A stretch of DNA of 63,952 nucleotides, counting the filler, from Candidatus Woesearchaeota archaeon (GTDB lineage Archaea; Nanobdellota; Nanobdellia; Woesearchaeales; DATGWN01), in assembly GCA_047603125.1 (NCBI GenBank). It is 6 parts of 6 records of this genome, joined end to end, with 100 filler letters (N's around TTAATTAATTAA, not from the genome) between each part and the next. Parts side by side here need not be neighbours in the genome. Positions count along the whole stretch, not along the records: positions 1 to 12,937 come from JBLKOU010000030.1; positions 13,038 to 25,952 come from JBLKOU010000031.1; positions 26,053 to 38,081 come from JBLKOU010000032.1; positions 38,182 to 49,932 come from JBLKOU010000033.1; 2 more parts are not named here. One strand, 5' to 3'. This document shows, piece by piece, positions 4,218 through 44,412 of this stretch (position 1 is its first letter; each line of letters starts with the position of its first letter). Made by a program: the position numbers and the translations under genes. Under the pieces are notes generated by a model, which saw nothing but the letters and a program-made list of their open reading frames with translations, had not been told where the DNA came from and searched no databases.

Positions 4218-4250
4218 TACTGCACGGCGATTTTGCGCCAAGATGCAGTA
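4218..4250 (+). repeat. Structured intergenic element, minimal copy
   Basis: TACTGCA-C-GGCG-ATTTTG-CGCC-AAG-A-TGCAGTA. Confidence 0.65.
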
Positions 4251-4319
4251 GCCTTTTCTCTTCTGTAATACGTTCAACAATTCGTAATCCTTTTAAATCC
4301 GCAACAACTGCACTCTAGT

Positions 4320-5192
4320 ATGTTGCGCAGACTCTTTATGTTAGTGTTTTTATTACTTGTATTTGGTGTTGGGCTCTTTGCACTCTTTTCTCTTACAGGA
4401 TTTTTGCAAGGAGGGCAGATTGACGCAAGAGATCTCGCACGGTGGAATTATACGCAAGATGGTTATATTGTTGGAACGCAACCGTTTACTTTAGAAGGTG
4501 AAACGCAACGTTGCTGGCTTCTCATTCATAGCTATGGTGCTACACCAAAAGAAATGAGTGAGTTGGCACACAGAATTCACAATGAATTTATAGATACGGT
4601 CAGAGTTGTTCGCTTGCTTGGACACGCAACAGTGCCTAGTGATATGCAACAATATTCGTATGAAGATTGGTATGAACAAGTGGCACAAGAATATGAACAA
4701 TTACCGTGCTCGCAAGTTATAGTTGTGGGTTCGTCCATTGGCGGTGCGTTGGCATTAGAGTTGGGGCAAGAATATGAGGTGGAAAAGTTAGTCATTCTTA
4801 ATCCATTTTTATCGACGATGTATGAAGATTTACTTGCAAGCGCACCTGTAGTTCATTTTGCAAAAAAACACAATGTTGCGCAAATTCATGATCCAAGAGG
4901 TAGAGAGCAACATATTGCGTACATGAACATGCCTTTCGAACCATTATTGAATTCGTTTTCTCGACTTGCAAATGTTGAGCAAAATTTGGAAAGTATTGAG
5001 CAACCCATTCTTATTATGCATGGGCCTTTTGATAGAACGAGTAGTCCGAGTGTTCCAATAACAATTTATGATTCTGTTGCAAGTTCACAAAAAGAGCTTC
5101 TGTGGATGGATCAATCAAATCATATATTGCTCATGGATTATCAAAGAGAACAAGTGATTCAAGAGATTCTGGCATTTGCGCGCGAAGAATAA
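4320..5192 (+). CDS. Membrane-anchored alpha/beta hydrolase (carboxylesterase/lipase)
   Basis: N-terminal TM helix, GSSIG nucleophile elbow, Asp in HGPFD, His in SNH. Confidence 0.85.
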   Translation: MLRRLFMLVFLLLVFGVGLFALFSLTGFLQGGQIDARDLARWNYTQDGYIVGTQPFTLEGETQRCWLLIHSYGATPKEMSELAHRIHNEFIDTVRVVRLLGHATVPSDMQQYSYEDWYEQVAQEYEQLPCSQVIVVGSSIGGALALELGQEYEVEKLVILNPFLSTMYEDLLASAPVVHFAKKHNVAQIHDPRGREQHIAYMNMPFEPLLNSFSRLANVEQNLESIEQPILIMHGPFDRTSSPSVPITIYDSVASSQKELLWMDQSNHILLMDYQREQVIQEILAFAREE

Positions 5193-5226
5193 CTACTTTT
5201 AAATAGTACTTAAAGATTGCGCATAT

Positions 5227-7989
5227 ATGCTTGAAAATATTATAACGCATATTGAGTCCAAATCCTCTCGAGGAGAAATTCATGTTCATTTCACAGGTGG
5301 GAAAACAGTTGTGGTGAGTGATTGGCGCCATTATTTTCCGACTAGACCCCTTAATCGTGATGACCGACCACAATCACGTGACTTTGCTCGAGAAAAGTGG
5401 AAAACTATTACTGAGCAGCTCAGGCAGCCTGAGTTTTTATATCAAAAAGGAGAAAAAACATTTCGCCCATCGCAGGCTTTTCAGGATCGATATTGGATGG
5501 TTGGTGGGACATTCTTGCCAATGAAGTCTGCACCGAAACTACCAAAAGAATTTATTTTAGGAAAATATACATGGCAGGCAAAAAAACGACTTGGTATAGT
5601 GCCCGGTATGGTGGTTTTATTTGATCAAAAAACACAAGATACACTCGCGACTGTTGCACAATTTCGCGAAAAGCTCAGACAAGGACGAGCACAAGTTTAT
5701 GAACAATTCTCAAGCAAAGCTCAAGCAACACGTTTTATTAATCTCGCTGATGCGACGGGGGAAAACCACTATGCCTCAGAACTTTTGCAACAGATACGCT
5801 CATTACAACCACAAAGGGTCAAATTTGAACCGCGTTATTCTTCAGGGGTAAAATATGATGTTTGGTACGAGGTGTCAGAACAAGACGCGCAAGAACTGTT
5901 CTCAGATGCAACAGCTGTAACTGCTGACCAAATTCAAAGCGCACCTTGGATGGCTTTTGATATTGAAATACCGCTGTTTCGTCATCCACAAGAATCAAAG
6001 ATCAGTTGGGTTGGTGCTACATTTCGGGAAAATAATCAGCGTCAAAGGGTGGTGTATACGCTCCATGATGGTTCATATGAGGGTTTGGATGGTACTGTTT
6101 TACAATTTTCAAGCCAAGAAGAGCTTATATCTCGTTTTGCAAAAGATATTCAAGAATTTAATCCTATTTTTGTTAGTTCATTTAATGCGAATTTTGATTT
6201 TATGCAAATGCGTGAGACGGGTGCGTGGGATATAGGTGCACACCAGACACCTGCGCTCTATCGTGCAACAGCTCCGTTTTTTGAAAGAATAGGTGTCGGG
6301 TCGCGTATTGTTATTGATCCTATGCGTTTTATGCAAATTGCACGTTTTTTTGATCCAAATGCGAAGCTAGAAATGGCTGCAGGATTAGAAAAATCAATTT
6401 CTTATGATCAGATGGAGCAGTTAGAACGAGAAGCGTGTGCAGGTAATAAGCAAAGTGCAAGAAAAATCGCTTCATATCTTGTTGAGGATGTGAAAGGTTT
6501 GGAGTCGGTGTTATGCTCCAAACAGATGCATGATTTTTATACTGCGGCAAGTTGGATATGTGGTCAGTTTCAAATTTCTTTTGACTCTTTGGTACATAGT
6601 GCGCAAAGCGCGCGCGATATTGTTGACTTTGAGTTTTTCAAGAAAAATAAGATTTATCGAGGACATGTAGCGCCGAATCATCGCACGACGGCAAAAATAA
6701 AAAGAGATATGCGCTCGCTTGCCAAAACCCGGGCGTTTTTGGATAGCACCGCTTTGAAAAAAACAGGATTGTTTACAAATGCGCAAAAGGGATTTGTGAG
6801 TTTGCGCTCATTAGTTGGAAAAATAAAGGGCTCTCATGAAGCGTTTTATGATCATGTAAGTCGCCAGGATGGTTTTTTACGCCATGTGTTTGAGAGGTAC
6901 TATCTTGCGACGATGCGATACATGTTTGAGGATTTTGGTCAGTTTTTGAGAGAGCGAGATGATTTTCAAAAAAAATCGAATATGTCTGTAATAGATTTCT
7001 CTCCATTATATTTGAAAACGATTAGTGGACTCAGTCATCATCGGCTTTTTACGAAATTAGAAGAAAATCGCTATGATAGAAATTTGTTAAAACAATTTAT
7101 TCATGCAAGACCTGGTGTAATGAACATACTTGAGAGCAAACATATCTCTGTTGACACTTTTGGTCAGCTCTTATGTGACTATGTGCAACTTGAAAAAAGA
7201 GCAAAGCAATTTGGCGCAAAGCATGGTATTTTGCCCATTGCTGACTTTTCTGATTCGTCTGATGCACTAGAATCTCGTTTAAATAAAGGTATACAATCTT
7301 TTGAAAACCATCTTCGAGCGCAAGGAAGAACATTGCTTGGGATTTCGAATGCCTATGTGTATATTGACGGGCCGGTAGAACAAACATCGCAGTATGTTCC
7401 TCTAGAATCATTGGATGCGGTCTATATAAGTGATGGTATTTATTACAAAAAAAATGGATTTATTTCAGATAAAACGCTCACGGGGGAGCTTGCTCCAAAT
7501 TATGTTCGAAATGCATTTGAGAATAAGGTTTTTTCGCATATGCTAGAGGCAATTTTAACTGAGGACACAGAGCGTGCGTTGCAAATATATCGAGAAGCAG
7601 AAAAACGACTTCTCAATGGTATTGATTTTTCACAACTTGTGACATATAGTAAGGCAACGGATAGATATTCGCTCTATTGTGATTCTGGTCAGGTGCAGTT
7701 TATGACAAGTCAACAGAGTGCGCAAGCGTACCTTGAAGCTTCACACCAGCAAAGATTGGCACAGTGGGAGAAAACAAAAAAAGGGCCAAAACCAGAAATG
7801 CCTCAAATCCGAGATGATCAATTTGTTGATGAATACCGAGCAAGTAAGCCAGTTGTGCGCATTTGTCAGCCGTCTGATTTACATGTGAATAAAGAGCATT
7901 ATTTTCGAACATTTTCTACTCGTGCACAAGCTTTTTTAGAACCATTGACTTCTCAGATCTCATCATCGAGTCAACTGGAGTTGTTTTGA
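5227..7989 (+). CDS. PolB-derived protein with 3'-5' exonuclease domain and degenerate polymerase domain
   Basis: ExoI FDIE, ExoII FNANFDF, ExoIII YLVED; motif-A-like IDFSPLY; no YGDTDS motif C. Confidence 0.65.
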   Translation: MLENIITHIESKSSRGEIHVHFTGGKTVVVSDWRHYFPTRPLNRDDRPQSRDFAREKWKTITEQLRQPEFLYQKGEKTFRPSQAFQDRYWMVGGTFLPMKSAPKLPKEFILGKYTWQAKKRLGIVPGMVVLFDQKTQDTLATVAQFREKLRQGRAQVYEQFSSKAQATRFINLADATGENHYASELLQQIRSLQPQRVKFEPRYSSGVKYDVWYEVSEQDAQELFSDATAVTADQIQSAPWMAFDIEIPLFRHPQESKISWVGATFRENNQRQRVVYTLHDGSYEGLDGTVLQFSSQEELISRFAKDIQEFNPIFVSSFNANFDFMQMRETGAWDIGAHQTPALYRATAPFFERIGVGSRIVIDPMRFMQIARFFDPNAKLEMAAGLEKSISYDQMEQLEREACAGNKQSARKIASYLVEDVKGLESVLCSKQMHDFYTAASWICGQFQISFDSLVHSAQSARDIVDFEFFKKNKIYRGHVAPNHRTTAKIKRDMRSLAKTRAFLDSTALKKTGLFTNAQKGFVSLRSLVGKIKGSHEAFYDHVSRQDGFLRHVFERYYLATMRYMFEDFGQFLRERDDFQKKSNMSVIDFSPLYLKTISGLSHHRLFTKLEENRYDRNLLKQFIHARPGVMNILESKHISVDTFGQLLCDYVQLEKRAKQFGAKHGILPIADFSDSSDALESRLNKGIQSFENHLRAQGRTLLGISNAYVYIDGPVEQTSQYVPLESLDAVYISDGIYYKKNGFISDKTLTGELAPNYVRNAFENKVFSHMLEAILTEDTERALQIYREAEKRLLNGIDFSQLVTYSKATDRYSLYCDSGQVQFMTSQQSAQAYLEASHQQRLAQWEKTKKGPKPEMPQIRDDQFVDEYRASKPVVRICQPSDLHVNKEHYFRTFSTRAQAFLEPLTSQISSSSQLELF

Positions 7990-8027
7990 GGTTCATCTTT
8001 TTTTGTAGGATTCTGAAAAGGTTTCAT

Positions 8028-8342
8028 TTAATTTTTTAATGTATTCAATTTTTCAACAAGTGTGTCAAAAACAATTTTTTTCTTTTCTTTTGTCAAAGAG
8101 AATACTTTCTTTTCAATCATTATTTTAGATATGGTGAAGATGTAATTTACTTTGATGACGCTGTCTTTAATAGCGCCTTCTTTTTTTGTAAGAGGTATAC
8201 CTCTCATAGATGTATTGCTTGTTACCCCTGCTACAACAAAATTATCAAATTCTTCAAATAAAATTACGGCGGGTCTCGTCTTTATATCAAAAGTGTCTGT
8301 AAATTGAATTTTCGTTAAAACTATATCTCCAGGCTTAGGCAT
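8028..8342 (-). CDS. PemK/MazF-family toxin
   Basis: PGDIVL, FTD, KTRPAVIL, VTS motifs; overlaps upstream small gene. Confidence 0.85.
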   Translation of the reverse strand: MPKPGDIVLTKIQFTDTFDIKTRPAVILFEEFDNFVVAGVTSNTSMRGIPLTKKEGAIKDSVIKVNYIFTISKIMIEKKVFSLTKEKKKIVFDTLVEKLNTLKN

Positions 8343-8559
8343 TTTCCCAAGCCTCGTCTTCATCATTATCCCACAATTCTTTCATTTTAATTTGTTGGAT
8401 CTTATGAAGAAATTCATCGTATTGATTCTTATTTTTCACATTCCTAAATACTTTAATCATCTTGGCGATTAATTCGTTATATGTTTGTTTCGGGTATTCT
8501 CTTGCATCTTTAAGAGAATTTACTAATTCCTTGTCTAATTGTATTGTGGTCGCAGCCAT
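8335..8559 (-). CDS. Antitoxin (RHH-like N-terminus)
   Basis: TTIQLDKE...TYNELI and C-terminal ELWDNDEDEAW; directly upstream of the toxin. Confidence 0.8.
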   Translation of the reverse strand: MAATTIQLDKELVNSLKDAREYPKQTYNELIAKMIKVFRNVKNKNQYDEFLHKIQQIKMKELWDNDEDEAWENA

Positions 8560-8816
8560 TATATATCACCTATAGTTATTATATAATTTCTTATATATAA
8601 ACATTTCGTTAGAAACGTTTTTTCTTGAACAGTTTCTCTCATAAACAAATGCGAAAGAGAGAATAAGAACTGAATGAACCACATCTTTGTTTAACGATCG
8701 CTTAATTTCTCATTATATACTGGGAAATAGTGTCTTTTGGTGAGATTTTCAGCATGACCAAAATCGAAAACTTTAAATATACATCTGTGTCTATGTGAAA
8801 GTAGAGTGTGACGTAG

Positions 8817-9206
8817 ATGAAGATATTCAGTTCATTATTCAAAAAAGAACCTTCTGAAGAAGAGTTGCTGGACATGGAAGAGGAGTATGTGCAGCTTGAT
8901 TCGACTCCAACAAGAAAAGAGTCCGATTCAAAAGTTGTTGTACGCCCGTTTACATTGGAAGATTTTTCTGATGTGAAAGACATTTTAGATTCCTTGCGAA
9001 CTGGGTATACAATTGCCTTGGTAAATATTCGCCCATTAAAGGAAAAAGATATGATTGAGCTTAAACGTGCGATTAATAAAATTAAAAAGACTTGTGATGC
9101 GCTCAAAGGAGATATTGCTGGCTTTGGTGATGATTTTATTGTTGTTGCGCCCGAATTTGCACAAATTTATCGACAAAAAAAAGTATCTTCGACAGATGAT
9201 TTATAA
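8817..9206 (+). CDS. sepF: Cell division protein SepF (archaeal type)
   Basis: LRTGYTIALVNI, ELKRAINKIK, GDIAG motifs. Confidence 0.85.
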   Translation: MKIFSSLFKKEPSEEELLDMEEEYVQLDSTPTRKESDSKVVVRPFTLEDFSDVKDILDSLRTGYTIALVNIRPLKEKDMIELKRAINKIKKTCDALKGDIAGFGDDFIVVAPEFAQIYRQKKVSSTDDL

Positions 9207-9320
9207 TAATTTTTTTTCAATCTTTGTATATTTATTATTTTCTTAGCAGCATCTTTGTGGTGACCAGAAGGATGCATAGATTTATATACTAGTGATAGTC
9301 TTATACTCTTTGGTGAAAAC

Positions 9321-9875
9321 ATGCAAGCACTTAAAGAAGAGTATGGAATTGTACTTGACTTCTTGCCAAATGGCTATCCATTTGATAAGGGATCTTCCTA
9401 TAAGAAAACTCCTATTGTGCAAGCAATTGGAACGACAAATTTCATTTTACTAGAGCTAGTTCCAAAACGTGATATTCACCTCAAAGCACACGATTCTGTA
9501 TACATTGGTCAAGGAAAACGCGATCATATTCACCATATTAATGGGAAAATTGGTCTTGATAAATTGACGGGAACGGCACGAGCTGAACTCCAATATGTAA
9601 TTGAAGACATGATTGATGAGGACGAGAAGCGATTTGTTGACTTTTTTAATAAATCTCAGCCACTTTCCATGCGTATGCACCAGCTTGAATTATTACCTGG
9701 GCTTGGGAAAAAACATATGTGGGAGATTATTGAAGAACGTCGAGAACCATTTACGAGTTTTGAGGATATCAAATCGCGAGTAAAACTCTTACCAAATCCC
9801 AAAGCATTGATTGTGAAAAGAATCTTAAAAGAGTTAGAAGGCGATCAAAAGCACAAGCTCTTTGTGAAAGAGTAG
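9321..9875 (+). CDS. DUF655 family putative nucleic-acid-binding protein
   Basis: VLDFLPNG, FILLEL, RMHQLELLPGLGKK (HhH). Confidence 0.9.
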   Translation: MQALKEEYGIVLDFLPNGYPFDKGSSYKKTPIVQAIGTTNFILLELVPKRDIHLKAHDSVYIGQGKRDHIHHINGKIGLDKLTGTARAELQYVIEDMIDEDEKRFVDFFNKSQPLSMRMHQLELLPGLGKKHMWEIIEERREPFTSFEDIKSRVKLLPNPKALIVKRILKELEGDQKHKLFVKE

Positions 9876-9936
9876 GTTTTTTTCTTTTGGTTTGAAAAGC
9901 ATATTTTTCTCATTTAGTATCAAATGGCGAATTCTC

Positions 9937-10032
9937 ATTATAATGCGGCGATTTTTGAACAGTGGTTCATCTTGCGAATTTCTCCGGCGCAGAGCTTCGC
10001 GAAATTCTAATCGTACGCCAAGGCATTATAAT
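9937..10032 (+). repeat. Structured intergenic element, full copy (96 nt)
   Basis: ATTATAATGC-GGCG...CGCC-AAG-GCATTATAAT; near-identical to 44317-44412. Confidence 0.9.
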
Positions 10033-10097
10033 TTCCTATTACTGTAACCCATTTTTTCCTCAATTTTTATAAACAGTAAATGCTGCTCTTTATGTAG

Positions 10098-11412: not shown

Positions 11413-11435
11413 AGGGTGACTGCTTAAAATTGAGC

Positions 11436-12937: not shown

Positions 12938-13037
12938 NNNNNNNNNNNNNNNNNNNNNNNNNNNNNNNNNNNNNNNNNNNNTTAATTAATTAANNNNNNN
13001 NNNNNNNNNNNNNNNNNNNNNNNNNNNNNNNNNNNNN
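12938..13037. other. Artificial contig spacer
   Basis: N run with TTAATTAATTAA core, 100 nt. Confidence 0.98.
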
Positions 13038-13159
13038 AAATCTATAAAACTTTCGGTTTTTACTAAAATTTATTAAAAATTAAGAAATAGTAGACTTTTT
13101 ACTTACATAATTTAACAATATTTAAATATGAGCACTTTATAGGTCAGTTTAGTGATACA

Positions 13160-21493: not shown

Positions 21494-21564
21494 GTATTCA
21501 CCAAGTGAGGAAAATACTGTTTTATTTAAAAAACTTTTGTTTCCATAATTGACAACATTAAAAA

Positions 21565-21659
21565 GCGATAATACCTTGGCGTAAAATCACAAAAATGGGT
21601 GATTTATGCAGCCCATTTTTGGCAAATAGACAGCTGTCTTATGTTCGCCGTATTAACGC
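21565..21659 (-). repeat. Structured intergenic element, full copy (95 nt)
   Basis: Reverse strand GCGTTAATAC-GGCG...GACAGCTGTC...GCTGCATAAATC...CGCC-AAG-GTATTATCGC. Confidence 0.85.
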
Positions 21660-21703
21660 AAACTTTTGTTGTACACTACTATTAGGTTTTGTTCAAGAAG
21701 AGG

Positions 21704-21744
21704 AAAAAGAGCATCTTGGCGCAAAGTCAGAAAATTCAGTGATT
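21704..21744 (-). repeat. Structured element, 3' half only
   Basis: Reverse strand ...TTTGCGCC-AAG-ATGCTCTTTTT, resembling the 3' arms at 4236-4250 and 26230-26248. Confidence 0.55.
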
Positions 21745-21885
21745 GTTTGAAGACTTCTTTCAAACTTGAGGATGGAAATCCGAAAGAAACGTACTATACA
21801 CTCAAGTATCTATGTTTGGATACATAGATGTATTTGTATAAAAGTATTTAAACAAAATATTCAAAAAATTTACTTGGGGTGACAA

Positions 21886-23222: not shown

Positions 23223-23298
23223 AGTTAGGGGTGCTTAAGAGGTTTTTTATAAAATTATGGGTCTTTTTTACAAGAAAATAGTCGACGACATTAATTTC

Positions 23299-23392
23299 GC
23301 ATAACTCGGCGATTTCACGACAGCTGTCAAGTTTGCAAAATCAGAGCTGCATGAATCGCTCTGATTTTTGATTTTACGCCAAGGAGTTATGC
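23299..23392 (+). repeat. Structured intergenic element, full copy (94 nt)
   Basis: GCATAACTC-GGCG...GACAGCTGTC...GCTGCATGAATC...CGCC-AAG-GAGTTATGC. Confidence 0.9.
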
Positions 23393-23458
23393 TTTTCTTT
23401 TGCCGCTAACTAAAACATCGATATATTTATATAATAAAAATATCAAAAAACACGTACA

Positions 23459-23911: not shown

Positions 23912-25878
23912 GTCTGTTCTTGTAATACGACCACACCATATGGCGCAATCTGACTTAAGACGACTTCTCTGTCAAGTACTTCAAACTGCGTGCTTGGTTG
24001 ATTGAGTAAAACAAGTGGATAGGAAACAAGTCCAAGACCGGAATATTCAAATAAATCGCTATTAAGAACCACTGAATACGGATTTTTTGTTCGCACACCA
24101 ACCTTATAATTATAATGATTCCAGGAAGTGAGATTAATAACAATAACATAGCGTGTTTGTTTTCCTTTATACTCACTGCTTCGCTCAACAACGAGTATTT
24201 TATTTTGCTCATCCACATTGAGAACTCGTCTATTCTTTGTAAACTGTGGCCAGAATGCAGGGTCGTCCATGAGCTGATTTACTGCTTGCTTATATGCAAC
24301 CATGTTTTTGTTGCATTGTGTAAATGTTAAGAACCATTGAATAGAGCTGTCATGTTCAAATGTTCCTTTTTGCAGTAAAAATGTTTGGATTAAATCAAGT
24401 GTTCTTCCTTCTCCCAGAAACGAAATGATTGCCTCCATAACTTTTATTTTCCCAATCGCATGCAAGTGGTTATGAGGTTGTTTATGTGTCATAGTGTCAT
24501 ACGCATATGAACCTGTTGCACGTTCGTGCATAAGACCAGCGGCAGCATCATGATTGTGAAAATCGCTAATTGTACTATTTGATTGACCCCACTCCATCTC
24601 ATCAATGATGTGTTTAAACTTCCAAGCACTGACTTTTTTTCCATCCATGAGCATATAGACTGTGTGAAAATAATAGGCTAAGCGAGAATTTGTATATGCT
24701 GTTGCCCCCAGTGCACGAGTGTCTTGATCAAAGGGTATGACTAATAGTTTTGCATTATCTTCATGAAAGTAATGTGCTTCTAAGTGAATGAGTGCAAGAG
24801 GATTATAGTCATAAATTTCTTTGTGTAATTGCCGTAAAAATGTTCTTCCATGTGGTCGTTCTTGCTCATCCCCATTGACTCCATAACGTAAAATTCCATC
24901 GACATTATCGATTCTTAAGCCATCTATTTTATAGCGATCAAGAAAATGAAGACAACTTGCCACCATAAAATCACGAACATGGGGATTGTCATAATCAATT
25001 CGCATTGTCCCCCAAGATGTTTCTTCTTTCATAAAGAGTCTTGTTCCATGGCGATTAACCCAGCACTGAATACCGTTTTTCTCACCATCATGACCAAATA
25101 TGCGATAATCTTTAAATGGCAAATGTCCAATAACAAAATCTCCAATGACGGCAATACCATTTTTATGGAACATATCAATCATGTATGCAAAATCATCCGG
25201 TGTCCCCCAGTTTTTTTGAATAGCAAATTGAAATGGAACAAGGTAACGATATTTCCAATTATCACCATCAATGTTTTGCGCAAATGGTAAGAATTGAACG
25301 GTATTAAACCCTAATTCTTTAATGTGTTCTATAATTCCACTATCTGCAATAAATCGGTAATAGTTTTTTTGTTCAATATCGCGACCCAATACACCCTTTT
25401 TATCTGCCCAATGAACTAATAAACCAGGAAGATCTGTTTGCAACACTTTTGTTGCACGTGTTACTGTATCAACAAAGGGATGAACTTGTTTGTAGCTTCG
25501 AGGATCATCAAAATCCCAAAAAATGGTGTTTCCATGATCATCAAAATAATACCCTGCTGGATCTTGCATATATTCTTGCGTTCCATGGGAGCAAACAAGA
25601 AGTTTATATGGTGTTTGATGTGTTAATGCCGTTGTTTGCAAGCTTGCATACACCGAATGCTCATCAGCTATGAGTTTGTATGCGTCTCTATCTTTATTTC
25701 CCCAATCATTAAAAGGTCCGACAAGATATACTTGCGTTTTTGGATTGTCTATAAGAACAGTAATTTGTGTTTTATACGCTCGTTTTTGCTTTCGTTCTAA
25801 TACAACAACTCCAACATGACTTTGATAATTCTTTTTTTTTGGCGCACAACCAATTGCCGCTTCCCATTGATATTGCAT
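23905..25878 (-). CDS. GH13 1,4-alpha-glucan branching enzyme-like protein
   Basis: CBM48-like LVGPFNDW; DGLRIDNV nucleophile, HLEAH acid/base, NHD motif. Confidence 0.85.
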   Translation of the reverse strand: MQYQWEAAIGCAPKKKNYQSHVGVVVLERKQKRAYKTQITVLIDNPKTQVYLVGPFNDWGNKDRDAYKLIADEHSVYASLQTTALTHQTPYKLLVCSHGTQEYMQDPAGYYFDDHGNTIFWDFDDPRSYKQVHPFVDTVTRATKVLQTDLPGLLVHWADKKGVLGRDIEQKNYYRFIADSGIIEHIKELGFNTVQFLPFAQNIDGDNWKYRYLVPFQFAIQKNWGTPDDFAYMIDMFHKNGIAVIGDFVIGHLPFKDYRIFGHDGEKNGIQCWVNRHGTRLFMKEETSWGTMRIDYDNPHVRDFMVASCLHFLDRYKIDGLRIDNVDGILRYGVNGDEQERPHGRTFLRQLHKEIYDYNPLALIHLEAHYFHEDNAKLLVIPFDQDTRALGATAYTNSRLAYYFHTVYMLMDGKKVSAWKFKHIIDEMEWGQSNSTISDFHNHDAAAGLMHERATGSYAYDTMTHKQPHNHLHAIGKIKVMEAIISFLGEGRTLDLIQTFLLQKGTFEHDSSIQWFLTFTQCNKNMVAYKQAVNQLMDDPAFWPQFTKNRRVLNVDEQNKILVVERSSEYKGKQTRYVIVINLTSWNHYNYKVGVRTKNPYSVVLNSDLFEYSGLGLVSYPLVLLNQPSTQFEVLDREVVLSQIAPYGVVVLQEQTQ

Positions 25879-25952
25879 CTATGTTAAACCTCGCATGTTT
25901 TTATAGCTTTTCATTTTTTGTTTGTATTTTTCCAAATACCTCTCACAAAAGA

Positions 25953-26052
25953 NNNNNNNNNNNNNNNNNNNNNNNNNNNNNNNNNNNNNNNNNNNNTTAA
26001 TTAATTAANNNNNNNNNNNNNNNNNNNNNNNNNNNNNNNNNNNNNNNNNNNN
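25953..26052. other. Artificial contig spacer
   Basis: N run with TTAATTAATTAA core. Confidence 0.98.
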
Positions 26053-26207
26053 ATCCCTGTCATTTTTTATCACCAATTATAGTTTTTTAAACTATAATAA
26101 AAAATGCGGGGTTTAACATACAATCATAGTTGGACGTTTTTTGTGCGTCCTTATTAATGTTCGTATTTTTTGGAAAAAACTCTCGTTTCATCTACTAATT
26201 GCTTTTC

Positions 26208-26248
26208 AAAAAAGAGCACGCAGATCTGGCTGCAAGGTGCTCTTTTTT
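26208..26248 (+). repeat. Structured intergenic element, minimal copy
   Basis: AAAAAAGAGCAC-GCAG-ATCTGG-CTGC-AAG-GTGCTCTTTTTT. Confidence 0.7.
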
Positions 26249-26310
26249 CTTATTTTTTTAATGGAGTTAAAAACTCCGGATTTGTGTAAAAAATCGAATT
26301 TTTATTTTAC

Positions 26311-26405
26311 AGCAATATTACGATTAATTCAGACTCGCGTATCTTGCCGACGAGGCGCTGCATAAATCGCGCCATGTCGTAATGAGGCATCAAGGTAATA
26401 TTGCT
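26311..26405 (+). repeat. Structured intergenic element, divergent full copy (95 nt)
   Basis: AGCAATATTAC-GAT...GCTGCATAAATCGC...ATC-AAG-GTAATATTGCT. Confidence 0.8.
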
Positions 26406-26477
26406 TACTTCTTTTAATTTTTACACAAACCCAAAACCTCCTTAACATTTTTAAAGACTAGCGAATGTGCCATTTCT

Positions 26478-33652: not shown

Positions 33653-33711
33653 ATTTTTAGTGTTTTTTTAGCATTTAAATGTATTGTGTAAATAGTTTAT
33701 GAGATGAGAAA

Positions 33712-33806
33712 ATTGTAATGCGGTAATTTTGAACAGTTGTTCACTTTGCGAATTTCTCCGGCGCAAAGCTTTGCGAAATTCTGATTAAATGTCGAGCCAT
33801 TCTAAT
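33712..33806 (+). repeat. Structured intergenic element, degenerate full copy (95 nt)
   Basis: Shares TTTTGAACAG and TTGCGAATTTCTCCGGCGCA...GCGAAATTCT with 9937-10032; outer stem decayed. Confidence 0.85.
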
Positions 33807-33874
33807 TTTTATTGTCTTTAATGAAAATATCTAAAATCGTTCAATTTATATACCTAGTGTTCTCTTCTTTTTGT

Positions 33875-37979: not shown

Positions 37980-38020
37980 GTAGTAAGAGTAATGTTTTAA
38001 CTTTATAAATATTGCTTCTA

Positions 38021-38081
38021 TTTAGTTAGCGGTAAAAGAAAAGCATAACTCCTTGGCGTGAAACCAAAAATCAGAGTGATT
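38021..38081 (-). repeat. Structured element, 3' half plus shared flank, truncated at contig end
   Basis: Reverse complement is near-identical to 23354-23414. Confidence 0.85.
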
Positions 38082-38181
38082 NNNNNNNNNNNNNNNNNNN
38101 NNNNNNNNNNNNNNNNNNNNNNNNNTTAATTAATTAANNNNNNNNNNNNNNNNNNNNNNNNNNNNNNNNNNNNNNNNNNNN
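38082..38181. other. Artificial contig spacer
   Basis: N run with TTAATTAATTAA core. Confidence 0.98.
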
Positions 38182-38751: not shown

Positions 38752-39377
38752 ATACGACCATTTCTCAAATAGTCTTGCAAGTCGCTTTCATCTAATTCAA
38801 ATTTATTTCCAATAACTCTACGTGCACGAACAGATTTTTCTTTGATAAAAGACGCAAACAGAAACCCAAAGCCCAAGCCAATAAAGTGTGCAGTAATTGC
38901 AACATTTGCAGGCGCTGCAAACAGATCAAATAAAATTAAAAAAATTCCAAACATCCAAAGAGGCATAGGAATGACACCCCATATAAGCACTTTCATTTTT
39001 GGTCGAAGACGGATAAGTGCGCCGGCAACCCCCATAACTGCACCACTTGCACCTAAAGCTAAACTTGGCGGAGGGATGAGTGAATACCCGATTGCTGCAA
39101 TTATTCCTGCAAGAAAATACAATAATACAAATCGGCGAATACCTAAAATTTGCTCTAAGACTGAACCCATAAAAAAGAAAAAGAGCATGTTAAATATTAT
39201 GTGTGAAGGTGTTTGTAAACTATGTAAGAACATAGAAGTAACAAGCGTATAGAATCGCTCGAAAAAAACAGCGCTCGTATCTAGAATAAACCAACCTGTA
39301 AACGGCTCAATAGTAATTTGAAGTAAATATACAAGCATACACACACCGATAATAGAAATTGTTGCTCTCATTGTCAA
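38748..39377 (-). CDS. Rhomboid intramembrane protease
   Basis: TSMFLH, HIIFNM, GASGA, AHFIG motifs. Confidence 0.92.
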   Translation of the reverse strand: MTMRATISIIGVCMLVYLLQITIEPFTGWFILDTSAVFFERFYTLVTSMFLHSLQTPSHIIFNMLFFFFMGSVLEQILGIRRFVLLYFLAGIIAAIGYSLIPPPSLALGASGAVMGVAGALIRLRPKMKVLIWGVIPMPLWMFGIFLILFDLFAAPANVAITAHFIGLGFGFLFASFIKEKSVRARRVIGNKFELDESDLQDYLRNGRI

Positions 39378-39847
39378 TCGTTATATAACTCGACACGAAA
39401 CTTTTCAGGAAGTGGCTTTTTTTCACTCTCTCGAATTTGATATCTCTCAACCACTAAGTCAAATAAATCAGGTTGAATACGTAATACGTCTTTTATTGTT
39501 AAAAAACCTAGCAAATTTTCTTGATGAATTACTGGAACATGGCGCACATCATATTCACGCATATGTTCAAGCGCACGAAAAATATCTAAATCAGGACTAA
39601 TACACACGATGTTTTTTGTCATGACTGAAGAAACCTGTGTTGACGCTGGAGAAACATTCTTAGAAACAACACGACGAACAAAGTCACGCTCGGTAAGAAT
39701 CCCTATTAATTTTTTATCTTCCACAACTAACAAACTCCCAACATTATGTTTATCCATTAATTGTGCACACGCCTCGAGTGTTGCCTGTGGACTTACCGTT
39801 ATAGGCAATCGTGTCATTGCATCCAAAACTTTTATTCCTGTTTCCAC
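39374..39847 (-). CDS. CBS domain pair protein
   Basis: VGSLLV...GILTERD and VRHVPV...GFLTIKD. Confidence 0.9.
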   Translation of the reverse strand: METGIKVLDAMTRLPITVSPQATLEACAQLMDKHNVGSLLVVEDKKLIGILTERDFVRRVVSKNVSPASTQVSSVMTKNIVCISPDLDIFRALEHMREYDVRHVPVIHQENLLGFLTIKDVLRIQPDLFDLVVERYQIRESEKKPLPEKFRVELYND

Positions 39848-40024
39848 CTTTCATCCCTCATAAAAAAGGTAAACTGAAATAGTATTTAAACATTTGTGTT
39901 TTGCACAACTACTTGCATCGTTTTTACTGAATAAAAGAGAATGAGAATTCGCCATTCGGTCTTAATTGAAAAACAATAGTTTTCCAAACCTCGCAAACCA
40001 AACGGTTTTCTAGAAAACCCAAAA

Positions 40025-41857
40025 CTATTGAGGAAGGACTTCCACTTCCGTTCCAAAGAGCGTTTTCAAGTCCGAATATGTCTTACTTTTGATTGTAAAA
40101 TCCTTTGGCACAGTTTCTTGAACAAGCGCTTTTTCAAATTCTTGCACATTGCAAGAACTCACTTTGCCAAAACCCCCCGTCGGTGTGATGTGCGCTGTCA
40201 CATATTCACGTTCCTGAGCGAGAACGTCAAGAATGGCATATGCGAGTTGACCAAAAATAAACACTTCCCCAATTTTCTCGCCATACTTTACACGAATGCG
40301 TGTTTTTGCAAGATTCTTACTTTGTACTCGCTCTATGTACTCAACTAAAACTCGTAACAAACTATGAGATTCCATGCGAAGTTTTTCAATTTCAGATTTA
40401 TGCAATTTCTTTTTTTGCTTATAAGCATCAAAAATAAGCTCAATTTGACGTACCACATGAACCGGAAGTTTGTTTGAGCTCACAACTGTCTCTTTAAATA
40501 CATCAAGAAGTTTTTCGTCTTTAACTGATTTTACATTTTCAAGCGATAATATATCACGAATAACCGTGACGACTTGATCATATGTGTGCTCAATACTTTT
40601 TCCTAATTGTTGCTGTTCAATATCAGTAAATAATTTTCGAATACGCTTGAGAAATTTCGCACTGTCTTTTATACAACGGTCTATTTCTTTGACATCTACT
40701 TCTTTTTGCATGTCATGCTCTAATTCTTTTCGAAGTTGAATATTATTTTGTAAAATTTTTACATATTCGGGTTCAAGAAGCTTTTCTTCTTTCACAAAAA
40801 TTTTCTCCATAAGCTCAGCAGTCTCACGAGGAGTTGGAGGTGGTAAACCATATAGCATCAATGAGGCTTGCGCGGGATAAATAATGGAGTAATACGTATC
40901 TTCCATACCAATTTCTTTGAGCTTGAATTTTGTTCGCTCAAGCATTTGCTCACCCGTACTCATATACATGTCAATGGATTCCATGCTTGGTTTAATTTTT
41001 CCTAAACGAAGTAATTGTTTCCAGGGCATGAAAATTCCCCGATCATAAAACGGTACACCATCGCGTAAAAAAGTAAAGATTACAGGATTTGCTTCTTTAA
41101 TAGAATCCCAAAAATCAGTAAGAATGTATGTTTGAATTTGAAACTGACGAGAAATGCCCGTCATCTCGCTTGCTTGAGAAGCCATGCTTAAAATGATGCC
41201 ACGAAGTTTGTCTTTGAGCTCAACACGCGTCATTTTTTTCACATCAGTGTCGTCAATGACAATAAATACATCAATATCACTTTTCTCAGTTGAACGTCCT
41301 TGGACGAAACTTCCAGCCAAGACATAGCTCACAATGTACTTTTCAAATTTTTGTAAAACTAAGGCTTTATGCACCTCTGAGATTTTAATTGCTGAGAGCA
41401 TCCCCGTATCATAAACGGTTGCACCTGCTGCAATAATTTGTAAAATTTCTGTTTTGGAATCAAAACAATATTGCCACAATTCTGTATAAATAAGTGTTTG
41501 TGGATTCAGTCGAGAATCAATATTTTTTGCAATCTCTTTAATGACACCATCAAGTTTGTCTCGAAGCTCCAACTTGCTCATTTTTGTTGGCTCAGTGTCA
41601 TCGATAAGAACAAGGACGTTGATATTGTCTGATTGCTGCTGCTTATCAAACTCTTCTTGCGATTGTGGTTCAGGTTCGTGAATGTGTTCTATTGTTCTTC
41701 CTGGAGGAAGCAGTGATACGCCGGAAACATACCCTTCAAAGCGCTCCACTACCTTATCTTTAAACTTTTCAACAATTGCTTGAATTTGTTTGAGTTTCTC
41801 CGAAGAAATCTGATCCTGTTGTTGTGCAGGTTGCGTCTGTGTCTGTTCATCTGCCAT
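40025..41857 (-). CDS. Tandem nucleotidyltransferase domains plus HEPN-like domain
   Basis: Degenerate N-terminal NTase (INVLVLIDD), intact second copy (AGSF...SDIDVFIVIDD), RKELEH Rx4H motif. Confidence 0.8.
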   Translation of the reverse strand: MADEQTQTQPAQQQDQISSEKLKQIQAIVEKFKDKVVERFEGYVSGVSLLPPGRTIEHIHEPEPQSQEEFDKQQQSDNINVLVLIDDTEPTKMSKLELRDKLDGVIKEIAKNIDSRLNPQTLIYTELWQYCFDSKTEILQIIAAGATVYDTGMLSAIKISEVHKALVLQKFEKYIVSYVLAGSFVQGRSTEKSDIDVFIVIDDTDVKKMTRVELKDKLRGIILSMASQASEMTGISRQFQIQTYILTDFWDSIKEANPVIFTFLRDGVPFYDRGIFMPWKQLLRLGKIKPSMESIDMYMSTGEQMLERTKFKLKEIGMEDTYYSIIYPAQASLMLYGLPPPTPRETAELMEKIFVKEEKLLEPEYVKILQNNIQLRKELEHDMQKEVDVKEIDRCIKDSAKFLKRIRKLFTDIEQQQLGKSIEHTYDQVVTVIRDILSLENVKSVKDEKLLDVFKETVVSSNKLPVHVVRQIELIFDAYKQKKKLHKSEIEKLRMESHSLLRVLVEYIERVQSKNLAKTRIRVKYGEKIGEVFIFGQLAYAILDVLAQEREYVTAHITPTGGFGKVSSCNVQEFEKALVQETVPKDFTIKSKTYSDLKTLFGTEVEVLPQ

Positions 41858-41976
41858 GGTAAACTAGCATATGATATCGTTTATAAAGTTTATTGCCAAA
41901 ATTATGAAATAGTTTTTTCAGATAAAGGCATATACCCGTCGATACTTTTAAAAACAACTGTGTCCCATAAATTGGT

Positions 41977-42465
41977 ATGCCCAAAGATGATATTGGATTT
42001 GCACCACTACGATATCGTGGTTTATGCGATTTAGAAAAAATTTATAGGACTACTGTAAAGTGGATGAAACAAAATAATTTCAAAGTCTTTCAAAATTCTT
42101 ACAAAGATAAAGTTTCAGGCCCAGGTGTGAGTGAAATTGAAATAAAATTTGAATCGAAATTAAAAGTGGATGAATATCATCGTTGCTTGTTTAAATTTGT
42201 ACTCAAAACATGGGATACACAAAAAGTGCAAACTGAAGATGGAAAAATGCTCTATAATGGACGAATAGACATTAACATCAAAGGAAGCATTGAAACAGAC
42301 TGGCAAGGAGCCTATGATGGCAAGACCACGCTGCGAGATTTAATGGGCAAAGTCGTCTATAATTTGAAAAAAAACGATCCCGATCAATATTATGAAGATT
42401 GGTTTCGCGAGCGCATTTATGAATTACAAGAACAAATTAAACAGATTATAGGTATTCAAACATGA
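41977..42465 (+). CDS. Hypothetical protein, paralog 1 of 3
   Basis: 162 aa; LRYRGLCD...GRIDINIKG. Confidence 0.75.
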   Translation: MPKDDIGFAPLRYRGLCDLEKIYRTTVKWMKQNNFKVFQNSYKDKVSGPGVSEIEIKFESKLKVDEYHRCLFKFVLKTWDTQKVQTEDGKMLYNGRIDINIKGSIETDWQGAYDGKTTLRDLMGKVVYNLKKNDPDQYYEDWFRERIYELQEQIKQIIGIQT

Positions 42466-42953
42466 GTGAGAAAAAAGTACTTGTTCCCCACATGCAACTC
42501 ACGCATAAGGGCACACTGGACTGTAACAGCATAGAGCACACGATACTAAAATCTCTAAAAAAAAGAGATTATCAACTTGATGACCAGTCTTATGATATAG
42601 AACAGACCCCAGATGGACTAAATCAAGCAATCACCTACACGTTTGTAAAACAAGACACAAAATATGGTATTTCTAAAATAACAATCACAAGTTCATTTAC
42701 GCATCTCAAACCCGTCGTATTAAAAACGGATGTCCAAACGACATTATTTTCAGGAGAATTCACATTAACATTTAAAGGACAAACCATTACAGAACATGAA
42801 GGAAGAATTGCACATAAACCATGGCTTTATTTTGAAAAAATGATTTTAAGTAAATTCGTCTCACGATCTTTTTTTCCAAGACCTGGAACGGACATTGCAG
42901 ATACAATTTTTGATACAAAAAAACAAGTGGAGCATTTACTAAAACATGAGTGA
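42462..42953 (+). CDS. Hypothetical protein, paralog 2 of 3
   Basis: 163 aa; LTHKGTLD...GEFTLTFKG; ATGA overlap with the previous gene. Confidence 0.75.
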   Translation: MSEKKVLVPHMQLTHKGTLDCNSIEHTILKSLKKRDYQLDDQSYDIEQTPDGLNQAITYTFVKQDTKYGISKITITSSFTHLKPVVLKTDVQTTLFSGEFTLTFKGQTITEHEGRIAHKPWLYFEKMILSKFVSRSFFPRPGTDIADTIFDTKKQVEHLLKHE

Positions 42954-43443
42954 AGAATTTCGCATAAATGAACGAGAACTTTCTTTTACAGGGTATTTTC
43001 ACATTAAAGAAATTAAAAAAATAATAGAAACACATATTGCTCAAAAAGGATATGATAAGCAAGAGATTGTTCATGAAGTTCAGCACAGAAAAGACGGCAA
43101 TTACACGTTTATCAAATTATATCCCATACGCCGTTTTACTGATGAGGAAACCTTTACACTCGAGCTCACCTATGGCTTTGGTAGTATTACCCAAGAAAAA
43201 TTAAAAGGAACAGTTTATGATAAAGGAACATTTTTTATTTCGATGGGAGGCACGCTCGATGTGGATACCGCAGGCAAATGGTCTTCATTTTATGATGGAC
43301 TCGGGCTGCTTATTCGTTTTATAGGAAATATGTTTGTATTCAAAGAACATCATCAAAGCCTCATTGACGATTGCAAACAAGACAGGGATGAGCTCTATCA
43401 AGCACTTCTGAGTTATTGTAATGGGCAAAAAATAAACCGATAA
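42946..43443 (+). CDS. Hypothetical protein, paralog 3 of 3
   Basis: 165 aa; LSFTGYFH...GTFFISMGG; 8-nt overlap with the previous gene. Confidence 0.75.
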   Translation: MSEEFRINERELSFTGYFHIKEIKKIIETHIAQKGYDKQEIVHEVQHRKDGNYTFIKLYPIRRFTDEETFTLELTYGFGSITQEKLKGTVYDKGTFFISMGGTLDVDTAGKWSSFYDGLGLLIRFIGNMFVFKEHHQSLIDDCKQDRDELYQALLSYCNGQKINR

Positions 43444-43477
43444 CCATTTAAATACCTGTTTTTGCCTCAACACCTAT

Positions 43478-43562
43478 GCACGGGTAACAAAGTCTGGTCA
43501 AATGTGCAGGACTTAAGATCCTGTGGCGTACGCCTTCGTGGGTTCAAATCCCTCCCCGTGCA
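43478..43562 (+). tRNA. tRNA-Leu (TAA)
   Basis: GCACGGG/CCCGTGC acceptor, CAGGA-CTTAAGA-TCCTG anticodon arm, long variable arm, GTTCAAATC T loop. Confidence 0.93.
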
Positions 43563-43569
43563 CTTTTTC

Positions 43570-44259
43570 TTAGCCATTATGTGCTAAATAATAGCAAAAA
43601 TAGAGACTTGTTGCGCTTATCATAAATGTTGTATAAAAAATTAGAAACACAATTTGTGAAAGATAAAATAAAAGAACAAAATGCACACCAATTATGAGAA
43701 AAAAGACAAATGCCATTATTTGTAATTTCCAAAAATGTCTTGCCCATGCGAATTTAACTGCACAACTAAATGAACTTGTTTTCATAAGACCAGCTAAAAA
43801 CGCAAATAAATAGCTACAAAGAGCATACACCAGTCCTGCAAATACTCCATACACTAGAAATAATGCGCCTCTGGCTAGTATATTGGAAGCATATGCGATT
43901 AAAAAAGGGATAACTAACAATACTTGCAATACTATGAGCAAAATTAATGGAAGTAAGAGCACAAACCCTACAAAAACACTCAAAGAAAAAAGCATGTTCC
44001 AATATGAGGTTTTTACAAATTTCTCCTGAGCTATTTTTTGAAAAATAAACGCACTCAAAAATGTAACAAGTGCAATTGTTACTAAAAAAAGCATCATAAA
44101 TTGATTTTGTGCACTCACTGAAGGCTCAAGTGAAAGCATGACTTCTTGTGATGCCGGTAGAATATATACAAATGTTTGCCAACCTGCAAGTAGGGCAAAA
44201 AACCACCAACATTTCTCAAAAATATAAACTACTTGTTCGTATATACTTGTACTCATCAA
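43570..44259 (-). CDS. Multi-pass membrane protein
   Basis: About 6 TM segments. Confidence 0.7.
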   Translation of the reverse strand: MMSTSIYEQVVYIFEKCWWFFALLAGWQTFVYILPASQEVMLSLEPSVSAQNQFMMLFLVTIALVTFLSAFIFQKIAQEKFVKTSYWNMLFSLSVFVGFVLLLPLILLIVLQVLLVIPFLIAYASNILARGALFLVYGVFAGLVYALCSYLFAFLAGLMKTSSFSCAVKFAWARHFWKLQIMAFVFFLIIGVHFVLLFYLSQIVFLIFYTTFMISATSLYFCYYLAHNG

Positions 44260-44316
44260 TGCTTATGCAGGTTTCATCATTTATAAGTGTTGAGGAACTT
44301 TCGTTTTTGATAATAC

Positions 44317-44412
44317 ATTATAATGCGGCGATTTTTGAACAGCGGTTCATCTTGCGAATTTCTCCGGTGCCAAGCTTCGCGAAATCCTGATTATGCGTCA
44401 AGGCATTATAAT
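44317..44412 (+). repeat. Structured intergenic element, full copy (96 nt)
   Basis: ATTATAATGC-GGCG...CGTC-AAG-GCATTATAAT. Confidence 0.9.

Follow-up and report, generated by a model that had tools for sequence, protein, structure and literature searches.

A covarying three-way-junction core shared by MITE subfamilies of a woesearchaeal genome

Repeated elements in the window

The window, by which we mean the whole stretch of 63,952 nucleotides analysed here from a Candidatus Woesearchaeota archaeon, is made up of six contigs joined by N linkers. The model R1, which was used to search it at E ≤ 0.001, marks eight places, and every repeat copy that had been listed in a first-pass annotation of this DNA is present, with eight of them recovered by R1. 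The repeated unit had been described as 94-96 nt long. This length applies to the core only, as the repeats run for 20-45 nt further on each side; they are MITEs, since inverted termini and target-site duplications of 3, 8 or 9 bp flank the elements, and the 94-96 nt unit is their core.

A complete A-type MITE of 134 bp lies on the + strand at 23279..23412 (core 23299-23392), with the ends TAGTCGACGAC...GCCGCTAACTA, a 3-bp duplication (AAA, at 23276-23278 and 23413-23415), and a TATA-like box that starts about 13 nt past its right end. The complete K-type MITE, 155 bp in length (26278..26432, + strand, core 26313-26403), has the ends GGATTTGTGT...ACACAAACCC, a 3-bp helix (GAT/ATC), and a 9-bp duplication with one mismatch (AAAAACTCC / AAAACCTCC), and a TATA-like box is again found about 15 nt past the right end. 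Adjoining it is a C-type shell (26185..26268, +) with a minimal core at 26211-26245, consisting of an outer stem, a GCAG/CTGC helix, a 6-nt loop, and the AAG bulge, without inner hairpins. Another minimal core, at 4217..4251 (+), has an outer stem, a GGCG/CGCC helix, a 6-nt loop, and the AAG bulge, and sits in a D-type shell whose arms extend over roughly 4175-4270, these bounds being approximate.

B-type elements occur on the + strand at three positions. In the MITE at 9915..10051 (core 9938-10031) the left end resembles the TAGTA...CGAAT ends of the IS family and the right end, ...GTAACCCA, is degenerate. The MITE at 33693..33824 (core 33713-33805) is decayed, with GAG replacing AAG and an R1 score of 41 bits, and is spanned with zero differences by a DNA contig of run X2. 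The copy at 44317..44429 (core 44318-44411) has degenerate outer arms and one mismatch in its helix (GGCG/CGTC). On the − strand, a J-type MITE (21546..21681, core 21566-21658) has a shell of the TAGT...GCGACA kind, in which the unlike arms are reversed in order relative to the core when compared with the A type.

Sequences annotated initially as halves of the element are real. Of a long-form copy truncated at its 5′ side (21691..21785, −) there remain part of a loop insert of ~42 nt, the 3′ strand of hairpin 2, and the junction, together with CGCC and the AAG bulge; the right outer stem and arm are likewise kept. The 3′ part of an A-type long-form copy (38023..38081, −) is incomplete because the end of a contig, C11, falls there within the joined window. 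Its right end, ...ACCGCTAACTA, is followed by AAT, and a TATA-like box lies about 13 nt beyond.

Fold and conservation of the core

The core is a three-way junction, formed by an outer stem, a 4-bp helix with an invariant AAG bulge closing it, and two hairpins. Both this architecture and the covariation of the stems had been noticed on first inspection, and they hold in an alignment of 44 distinct sequences drawn from this genome and six other genera. Within this set 92.0% of cells are paired compared with 58.7% in shuffles, none of 500 shuffles being as high, and controls in which the pairing was slid give 35-43%. Both sides have changed in 25 of the 27 pairs, and for the helix the proportion of cells paired rises to 98.9%. 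The 1136 cells include 1020 Watson-Crick pairs, 25 GT, and 20 AC. Stem sequences vary by lineage with Watson-Crick complementarity kept, and the AAG bulge is found in every full copy except the decayed one. The loop of hairpin 2 is conserved (TGCATRAATC), as is the junction YTGATTTTR that comes after it. Folding energy by itself is a weak signal and is the same for either strand, with Z-scores between +0.76 and −3.43 for the + strand and between +0.02 and −4.64 for the − strand.

The annotators had recognized no known family in these repeats, and Rfam is without a match to them: at the gathering score it returned only two tRNAs from the window, and at E ≤ 1 the eight element loci gave zero matches. 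Kink-turn and hammerhead motifs were rejected by eye, as the base after the bulge is Watson-Crick paired and the order of junction motifs is unfit, and Rfam agrees with this.

Termini, duplications, and copy number

About 110 full copies and 22 partial copies are dispersed in the 1.1 Mb genome, in which R1 has 111 matches. The elements are non-coding and 130-196 bp in length, and in each subfamily the core is extended by complementary arms that finish in terminal inverted repeats of its own, for example GGCTTCATCC/GGATGAAGCC, TAGTCGACGAC/GCCGCTAACTA, and GACAGTGTTTGAA/TTCAAACACTGTC, with both arms and termini conserved within the subfamily. The variable termini had earlier been taken to argue against a classical MITE. 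That argument falls away at the true ends, which are specific to each subfamily, inverted, and accompanied by target-site duplications. These are exact over 3 bp in 18 of 18 A-type elements and over 8 bp in all three E-type elements; the 9-bp duplication of the C type is exact in 9 of 24 and has at most one mismatch in 13 of 24, and that of the K type, scored by eye with the right end taken one base further out, is exact in three of four and has one mismatch in the fourth.

Placement is largely intergenic, with six of the 110 copies inside greedy-selected ORFs; when all ORFs were checked there were 11 overlaps with elements, mostly start-codon artefacts. Over the elements, DNA cover is 10-20 times as deep as over unique sequence. 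No empty sites were seen in contigs of runs X1, X2, X5, and X6, and the joints seen there connect different copies.

The core rides on at least four kinds of transposon backbone and also occurs in a few copies without a shell, and backbones and cores have been reshuffled. Some copies are mosaics, and the loop insert of ~42 nt is common to six subfamilies in nearly identical form. The TAGT...GCGACA shell is asymmetric and, as judged by eye, the orientation of the core inside it varies by lineage. In one genome (G087), two shell-less cores share an identical hairpin 2 and helix and have different outer stems and hairpins 1. The converse, a shell without a core, was found once in 10 genomes searched with spacings of 15-45 nt, as a 46-bp TAGT...ACTA element in G006. 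Minimal C-type copies retain the helix and the bulge.

Genomic context

Placement between divergent genes, as first described, is common: among 110 copies there are 31 divergent and four convergent contexts. Where the neighbouring genes are in tandem, 25 copies have the same orientation as the genes and 22 the opposite. Copies are found upstream of promoters in either orientation, and the elements dock 12-17 nt from TATA-like boxes. In IS relatives without the core, too, the distance from the end to such a box is about 14-16 nt (eight of 22 loci, by eye), so that a role for the core in targeting is unlikely; the idea of the core as a promoter-targeting device was set aside on this basis. One RNA library contains two contigs with whole elements and unique flanks; these contigs carry no information on strand or read ends, and carry-over of DNA is a possible source of them.

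An insertion sequence that carries the core

The core is present in six of nine sister genera, in none of the 31 other families of a first sample, and in four of 150 further genomes of the order. In related archaea (genomes G007 and G005 and two metagenome contigs) it falls within the final codons of a gene for an IS4/ISH3-like DDE transposase, at a distance of 12-45 nt from the end of the IS. At L041 in G007, for example, a 390-aa ORF occupies 1141-2313 (−) and the core 1155-1256 (−), and L042, L046, and L045 have the same arrangement. The sense strand of the transposase carries the core in all four ISs, overlapping the last codons and the stop.

The transposase of this group, P0001, and its homologues match PF01609 (DDE_Tnp_1) and PF04693 (‘ISC1217’), a likeness to IS4/ISH3-like archaeal ISs, and PF01609 matches occur in three of the 10 genomes of the family. 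The ISs of P0001 and its homologues are 1.28-1.65 kb in length, with CAGTA... inverted termini and duplications of roughly 5 bp (four clear cases among 22 loci, by eye), a duplication length shared with none of the MITE shells here. The core is limited to the subclade at least 60% identical to P0001, where its place is after the conserved part of the coding sequence and before the right end; conservation of the transposase ends just ahead of it, and C-terminal tails vary among homologues. For the 9-bp shells, we take the IS903 group of the IS5 family to be the closest kin, and we know of no module like the core at the 3′ side of IS4/ISH3-like or IS903-group elements.

The one core for which a cognate IS was recovered is that of the F type (CAGTATCTCCGAAT ends), and contig ends of G000 bear fragments of the IS. 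The family's 10 genomes, whose assemblies break at repeats, yielded no autonomous partners with TAGT...GCGACA, GGCTTC, or GACAGTG ends, and for that reason we infer, rather than observe, the descent of these shells from core-bearing ISs. In the genome to which the window belongs, 1318 ORFs were compared all against all without yielding a multi-copy transposase, shell ends paired at IS-like distances amounted to noise only, and a scan of genome contigs with P0001 recovered just the G007 locus itself. In viral contigs there were four pattern matches, none of them confirmed by R1, whose sole match there (15 bits) lies elsewhere in L125.

What the core may do

The reading that we favour, with moderate confidence, is that these are conserved foldable centres of MITEs and that the core has its role at the level of DNA, for the transposons themselves. 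Since related archaea have the same core where a transposase gene ends, service to the transposons is likely. A role as DNA is preferred over one as RNA because wobble pairs are strand-symmetric (GT 25, AC 20), both strands fold equally, and the copies have no bias in orientation towards neighbouring genes (25 and 22 in tandem contexts); the orientation of the core in its shell also varies by lineage, and deletions recur at the same short repeats. Under such a model, MITEs would arise from ISs through internal deletion with the core retained, and pairing would be kept at the DNA level equally for both strands. The core could then act as a branched hairpin or cruciform tip, or as a set of nested palindromic binding sites for protein, and its conserved unpaired bases might be recognized by the transposase or by a host protein. 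The short ‘minimal’ copies may result from replication slippage between short direct repeats at the junction base.

Conserved loops and covarying stems would likewise be shown by a functional RNA, and the sense-strand core in four of four ISs and the element-bearing contigs of the RNA library count against a role as DNA. All of these would suit an RNA element of the transposase transcript, acting for instance in 3′-end stability, termination, or control of synthesis, that was selected in ISs and inherited by MITEs, and several shells also have T-rich runs after the core. We regard this as possible, though unlikely. Wobble is rare as well as symmetric, compensated variants exist inside a single MITE family, and a core inverted in its shell has nevertheless not been lost. 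Furthermore, there are at least 10 MITE subfamilies with three duplication lengths, each of which would need a core-bearing parent IS, and one kind of such IS was found. Other ideas give the core a life of its own. It might spread as a module by invading the centres of palindromic mobile elements, or through capture by them, and so be carried on transposons of unrelated kinds; new MITE families could even be seeded in this way, if flanking ends were copied by fold-back. That one core occurs in shells whose duplications measure 3, 8, or 9 bp, in the IS with ~5 bp, and in the two shell-less copies of G087 fits such spreading, as do the near-identical loop insert in six subfamilies and the single coreless shell of G006. 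We nevertheless think it improbable: an enzyme, a target-site signature of the core, and an empty/filled pair were all not found, minimal C-type copies retain the helix and bulge, and the two unlike arms of the TAGT...GCGACA shell are conserved across families and therefore fit true left and right IS ends, not a fold-back copy. We hold equally improbable the idea that the core, as an autonomous structured module, lives with transposons as parasite or partner, moves between unrelated DDE backbones, and acts in their transposition as a nucleic-acid cofactor or licensing site. If this were true, these would be the first DDE elements dependent on a shared, exchangeable folded part made of RNA or DNA.

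The core is probably neither a spliced RNA nor an integron-like site. In the bulge-helix-bulge motif, the half at the 3′ splice site has a bulge placed 3′ of a 4-bp helix and beside an outer helix, and the first-pass annotation had pointed to the likeness of the core to such a half. The geometry is indeed there on the + strand, with a 3-nt bulge, a 4-bp helix, a longer outer helix, and the correct polarity, and the core has the one bulge and two helices of the relaxed bulge-helix-loop form. It could on these grounds be an intron-like RNA that is cut by the archaeal splicing endonuclease and ligated or circularized by RtcB. The rest of the likeness fails, in that a second bulge, an inner helix, and a strand signature in the wobble pairs are absent. 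Where a strict motif has two 3-nt bulges on opposite strands, 4 bp apart, the core has the 3′ bulge only, and by eye the bases after the 5′ helix strand cannot form the second bulge or the inner helix. Sequence hardly varies at the AAG bulge and the pairs that flank it, in contrast to known motifs, a host RNA with exons to join is lacking, and copies stand upstream of promoters in both orientations. Splicing at the bulge would also remove the 3′ helix strand and bulge that minimal copies keep. We consider an intron-like origin very improbable. Least credible to us is the suggestion, also from the annotation, of a single-stranded DNA hairpin used by a tyrosine or HUH recombinase in the manner of attC or REP/RAYT systems, which would account for variable sequence on a conserved structure with an extrahelical bulge. 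Fixed-length target-site duplications and inverted termini indicate instead DDE-type transposition, and the gene to which the core is physically linked encodes a DDE transposase. Conserved R boxes and cassette arrays are missing from what are single, dispersed copies, and the sole Y1 HUH match in the genome is truncated (PF01797; its open frame of 67 aa spans 57 of the 121 positions in the profile). The elements were accordingly rejected as integron attC sites, with termini that vary by subfamily and duplications flanking each copy, and as REP/RAYT sequences, being far longer than palindromes of 20-40 nt. A guide-RNA idea was dropped after inspection by eye, in which the variable segments showed no complementarity to the target duplications.

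Hairpin 2 has a hypervariable tip in the C family, often with compensation (33 haplotypes among 42 copies), and this is explained by none of the models considered.

Comparison with known systems

MITEs with foldable bodies in prokaryotes include Correia/NEMIS elements in Neisseria, ERIC, RUP, the archaeal SM elements, and the MITEs of halophiles. Like the present elements, they are short, non-coding, intergenic, and high in copy number, with inverted termini, duplications, and long hairpins, and derive from ISs. As far as those MITEs are known, the present elements differ from them in two respects, namely the single asymmetric, covarying three-way-junction core found here across genera, families, and shells with differing termini and duplication lengths, and docking at a fixed distance from TATA-like boxes.

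RNAs over the 3′ ends of transposase-like genes are known as the omega RNA or reRNA of TnpB and the ‘sotRNAs’ of IS1341-type genes. They share with the core-bearing IS a conserved structured segment that lies over the 3′ end of the ORF and extends towards the right end of the element. The transposase here is of the DDE type, in contrast, a guide-like segment was not found, and Rfam gives no match. Parvovirus genomes have T-shaped terminal hairpins, and the core may be compared with these as a structural analogy only, in that a long stem capped by two small internal palindromes would make a three-way junction in DNA. Unlike these hairpins, the elements are chromosomal and flanked by duplications, and no flip/flop pairs were seen within a family.

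In the usual view of a MITE, filler separates the two ends of a transposon. In these elements that ‘filler’ is the best-conserved part, a branched fold with compensating changes across genera; the backbones that carry it differ in their ends and cut spacing, and an autonomous IS has it too. Should mobility or stability depend on the fold, it would represent a new cis requirement in archaeal DDE transposition. In these genomes of 1 Mb the elements fill a large share of promoter-proximal DNA and break assemblies, and they are liable to be misread as RNA genes, attC-like sites, or introns.

Identity of the elements

The folded repeat of 94-96 nt with an AAG bulge, termed the core here, lies at the centre of a superfamily of MITEs, and we are confident that the same centre also forms the 3' module of an insertion sequence (IS). 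Every copy listed in the first-pass annotation is present where it was placed, and a profile search of the host assembly (1.116 Mb, 70 contigs, 36% GC) gave 110 full-length copies and a further 22 that are partial. The unit is longer than the 94-96 nt originally assigned to it. Within each subfamily the flanks stay similar for a further 20-45 nt on each side, the left and right sides being complementary. Termini whose variability had been held to argue against a MITE are the innermost part of these arms, and the true ends are inverted and bordered by duplicated targets.

Subfamilies are told apart by the shell of arms and termini around the core. The A type (134 bp, ends TAGTCGACGAC...GCCGCTAACTA) has an exact 3-bp duplication in 18/18 copies, and the E type (end GACAGTGTTTGAA...) an exact 8-bp duplication in all three. 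The C type measures 152-153 bp, rising to 190-196 bp in copies that contain a loop insert, and has ends GGCTTCATCC...GGATGAAGCC; its 9-bp duplication is exact in 9 of 24 copies and has at most one mismatch in 13 of 24. For the K type, an exact 9-bp duplication was seen by eye in three of four copies once the terminus is moved outward by one base. Complementary arms, subfamily-specific ends and duplications of fixed length together identify the elements as MITEs. One paper (PMC11602168) reports that a Woesearchaeal genome, with 105 conserved MITEs per Mb, ranks among the archaeal genomes in which such elements are densest.

Structure and variation of the core

In its 5' part, the core comprises an outer stem, a 4-bp helix (GGCG, GCAG, GGTG, GAAG, GAAA and others), a short junction, hairpin 1 and a junction ending in TTGC. 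The 3' part continues with hairpin 2 (loop TGCATRAATC), the junction YTGATTTTR, the 3' strand of the helix, the AAG bulge and the 3' strand of the outer stem. R1, a covariance model of the core derived from 23 representatives, gave 8 matches in the window and at least 111 in the genome, the latter a lower bound from scoring 150 of 929 candidates.

The covariation of the stems, proposed earlier, holds up in 44 distinct sequences from the host and six other genera. Of the cells, 92.0% pair, a level reached by 0 of 500 shuffles, and shuffling lowers the share to 58.7%; the alignment was fitted to R1, which favours structure, but the margin is nevertheless large. Changes on both sides occur in 25 of the 27 core pairs, and sliding the partner by 1-3 columns reduces pairing to 35-43%. 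Folding energy by itself is unremarkable and equal on the plus and minus strands. The core had not been recognized as a known family, and comparison with Rfam likewise returned no match for it: at gathering score the window gave only two tRNAs, and eight loci gave 0 matches at E<=1. Full-text literature searches turned up no description of the fold. Systems for comparison include IS903, ISH3, Correia elements, TnpB RNAs, the splice motif and parvovirus hairpins.

A nearly identical insert of ∼42 nt occupies the loop of hairpin 2 in ∼37 of the 110 copies, spread over six subfamilies (C, K, D, A, J and G). The E type carries a different, two-hairpin insert at the same place, and in a single F-type copy hairpin 1 contains an insert. 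Both inner hairpins are missing from the minimal copies. The loops of these copies correspond to 3' junction variants found in different full copies, indicating that the same deletion between short GAT repeats recurred several times. In forms of 73-79 nt the deleted stretch lies between CTGC or similar repeats, and such deletion forms may have arisen by replication slippage at the folded junction. Variation among C-type copies is concentrated in two hypervariable places, the four base pairs at the tip of hairpin 2 and the 6-nt junction preceding that hairpin, which give 33 haplotypes in 42 copies. Most of the changes are transitions, and many are compensated. No variation affects hairpin 1, the insert, the helix or AAGG, and the remainder of the element is almost invariant.

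Association with a transposase

Matches to PF01609 occur in three of ten genomes of the family. One of these, G007, contains an element of ∼1.28 kb in which a 390-aa open reading frame (P0001; PF01609 and PF04693) lies between CAGTATCTCCGAAT inverted ends; we take this IS to be IS4/ISH3-like. A core scoring 67 bits spans the last ∼38 codons of the frame on the sense strand, ∼45 nt from the right end. The copy in G005 has the same layout, its frame interrupted by two TGA codons. There are 73 homologues of P0001, most of them on contigs 1.2-1.7 kb long. When 30 homologues are aligned, protein conservation stops at ...LSSF, just before the core, and the tails beyond vary in length and sequence; the tail motifs ...VISLQG... 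and ...PCMNQ... appear to be core DNA read in two different frames. It follows that constraint acts on nucleotides rather than protein.

Among 80 metagenome loci of the transposase superfamily, R1 matches only L046 (59 bits) and L045 (29 bits), the only two that combine at least 60% identity with an intact 3' end; weak matches in L071 and L072 (E 0.7) are probably due to chance. Relatives at 45% identity retain the IS ends and have other sequence in place of the core. By eye, the superfamily has CAGTA... ends and duplications of ∼5 bp, the latter being clear in L052, L099, L111 and L113 among 22 loci.

In the host, the IS is present only as contig-end fragments and one solo right end. Repeats at window positions 26054-26129, 25872-25948, 50038-50107 and 13041-13107 have 4-7 copies in the genome, all at contig ends; they are probably the ends of multi-copy ISs unresolved in the assembly and are candidates for the missing autonomous partners.

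Distribution and inversion of the core

R1 has matches in six of nine other genomes of the family, one genus each (2-41 per genome), and in none of 31 genomes that each represent another family. Sampling the order more widely (150 genomes) added four positive genomes in four families, with 1-3 matches each. The TAGT...GCGACA shell with its 3-bp duplication also occurs in G007 and G046, and a GGCTTTGCACG shell with a 9-bp duplication in G005. Two shell-less copies in G087 are identical in hairpin 2, junction and helix and differ in outer stem and hairpin 1. At locus L133 of that genome (C8:154500-161500), two shell-less cores in inverted orientation bracket 3.1 kb encoding a 23S-IVP family protein, an unknown 494-aa frame and Kae1/TsaD.

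The arms of the TAGT shell, ...GCGACAAAAG and ...GCGACATTAAT, are unlike each other. Read by eye, the core has one direction in the A type and in L037 and the reverse direction in the J type, L022, L031, L135 and L138. Opposite directions within one asymmetric shell show that the core was inverted inside it, as recombination between inverted arms would produce.

Genomic placement

Only 6 of 110 copies fall in greedy-selected open reading frames; checking every frame gives 11 overlaps, mostly start-codon artefacts. Copies prefer promoter sides (31 divergent, 4 convergent, 25 tandem in the same orientation and 22 tandem opposed) and have no orientation bias. Of the 44 copies whose ends are defined, 30 have a TATA-like octamer that starts 12-17 nt away from one of them, against 5.9% of random intergenic points (C type 14/21, A 12/16, K 3/4, E 1/3). 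MITEs of four shell types dock beside TATA-like boxes in either orientation; examples in the window are to the right of 23412, 26432 and 10051 and to the left of 38023. By eye, a TATA-like box also follows the right end by ∼14-16 nt in 8 of 22 IS loci. As most of these loci are coreless, promoter docking does not require the core.

Possible roles of the core

Our preferred view is that the core acts in cis as DNA. It would form either a branched hairpin or cruciform tip or a nest of palindromic sites for binding, and would serve transposition or the stable carriage of these long palindromes. The main rival makes it a 3' RNA element of the transposase message. The core is always on the transposase sense strand, conservation is highest in its unpaired parts, and two RNA-library contigs cover whole elements with unique flanks, although strand, ends and DNA carry-over are not readable from contigs. 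Against this, the 1136 paired cells include 1020 Watson-Crick, 25 GT and 20 AC combinations. An RNA made from one strand would tolerate GU and not AC, so this near-symmetry favours DNA as the level at which bases pair or half-sites match. Two further observations agree: copies lack an orientation bias, and the core has survived inversion within its shell.

A bolder rival treats the core as a module spreading among transposon backbones. An attC/REP-type site is a weak alternative, as is an intron-like element: minimal copies keep the 3' helix strand and bulge that bulge splicing would remove, and were rejected as splice products.

Other features of the window and genome

Since the window joins six contigs (C9, C10, C11, C12, C13 and C65), features that seem to cross the N linkers around TTAATTAATTAA (12938-13037, 25953-26052, 38082-38181, 49933-50032 and 61338-61437) are artefacts. 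Its archaeal genes include those for an Rpb11-like RNA polymerase subunit, DUF655, a family B polymerase and archaeosine TGT. A second, coreless repeat of ∼190 bp occurs at C1:23208-23403, C8:9492-9684, C37:3748-3939 and ∼15 more sites of the host genome, none in the window. It starts GAGAGTTTCGCGGG..., ends ...CGAGCAGCGAACTTTTG, is flanked by TTATT and is often inserted after CTTATT in the right arm of core-bearing MITEs. Contig C25 (38117-38290) holds a truncated Y1 (IS200/IS605-type) transposase fragment, whose 67-aa open frame aligns to 57 of the 121 positions in the profile. A 68-nt pair at window positions 61523-61590 and 63612-63679, 85% alike and unrelated to the core family, contains the hairpin CAAACCCTACCATG...CATGATAGGGTTT followed by a T run.
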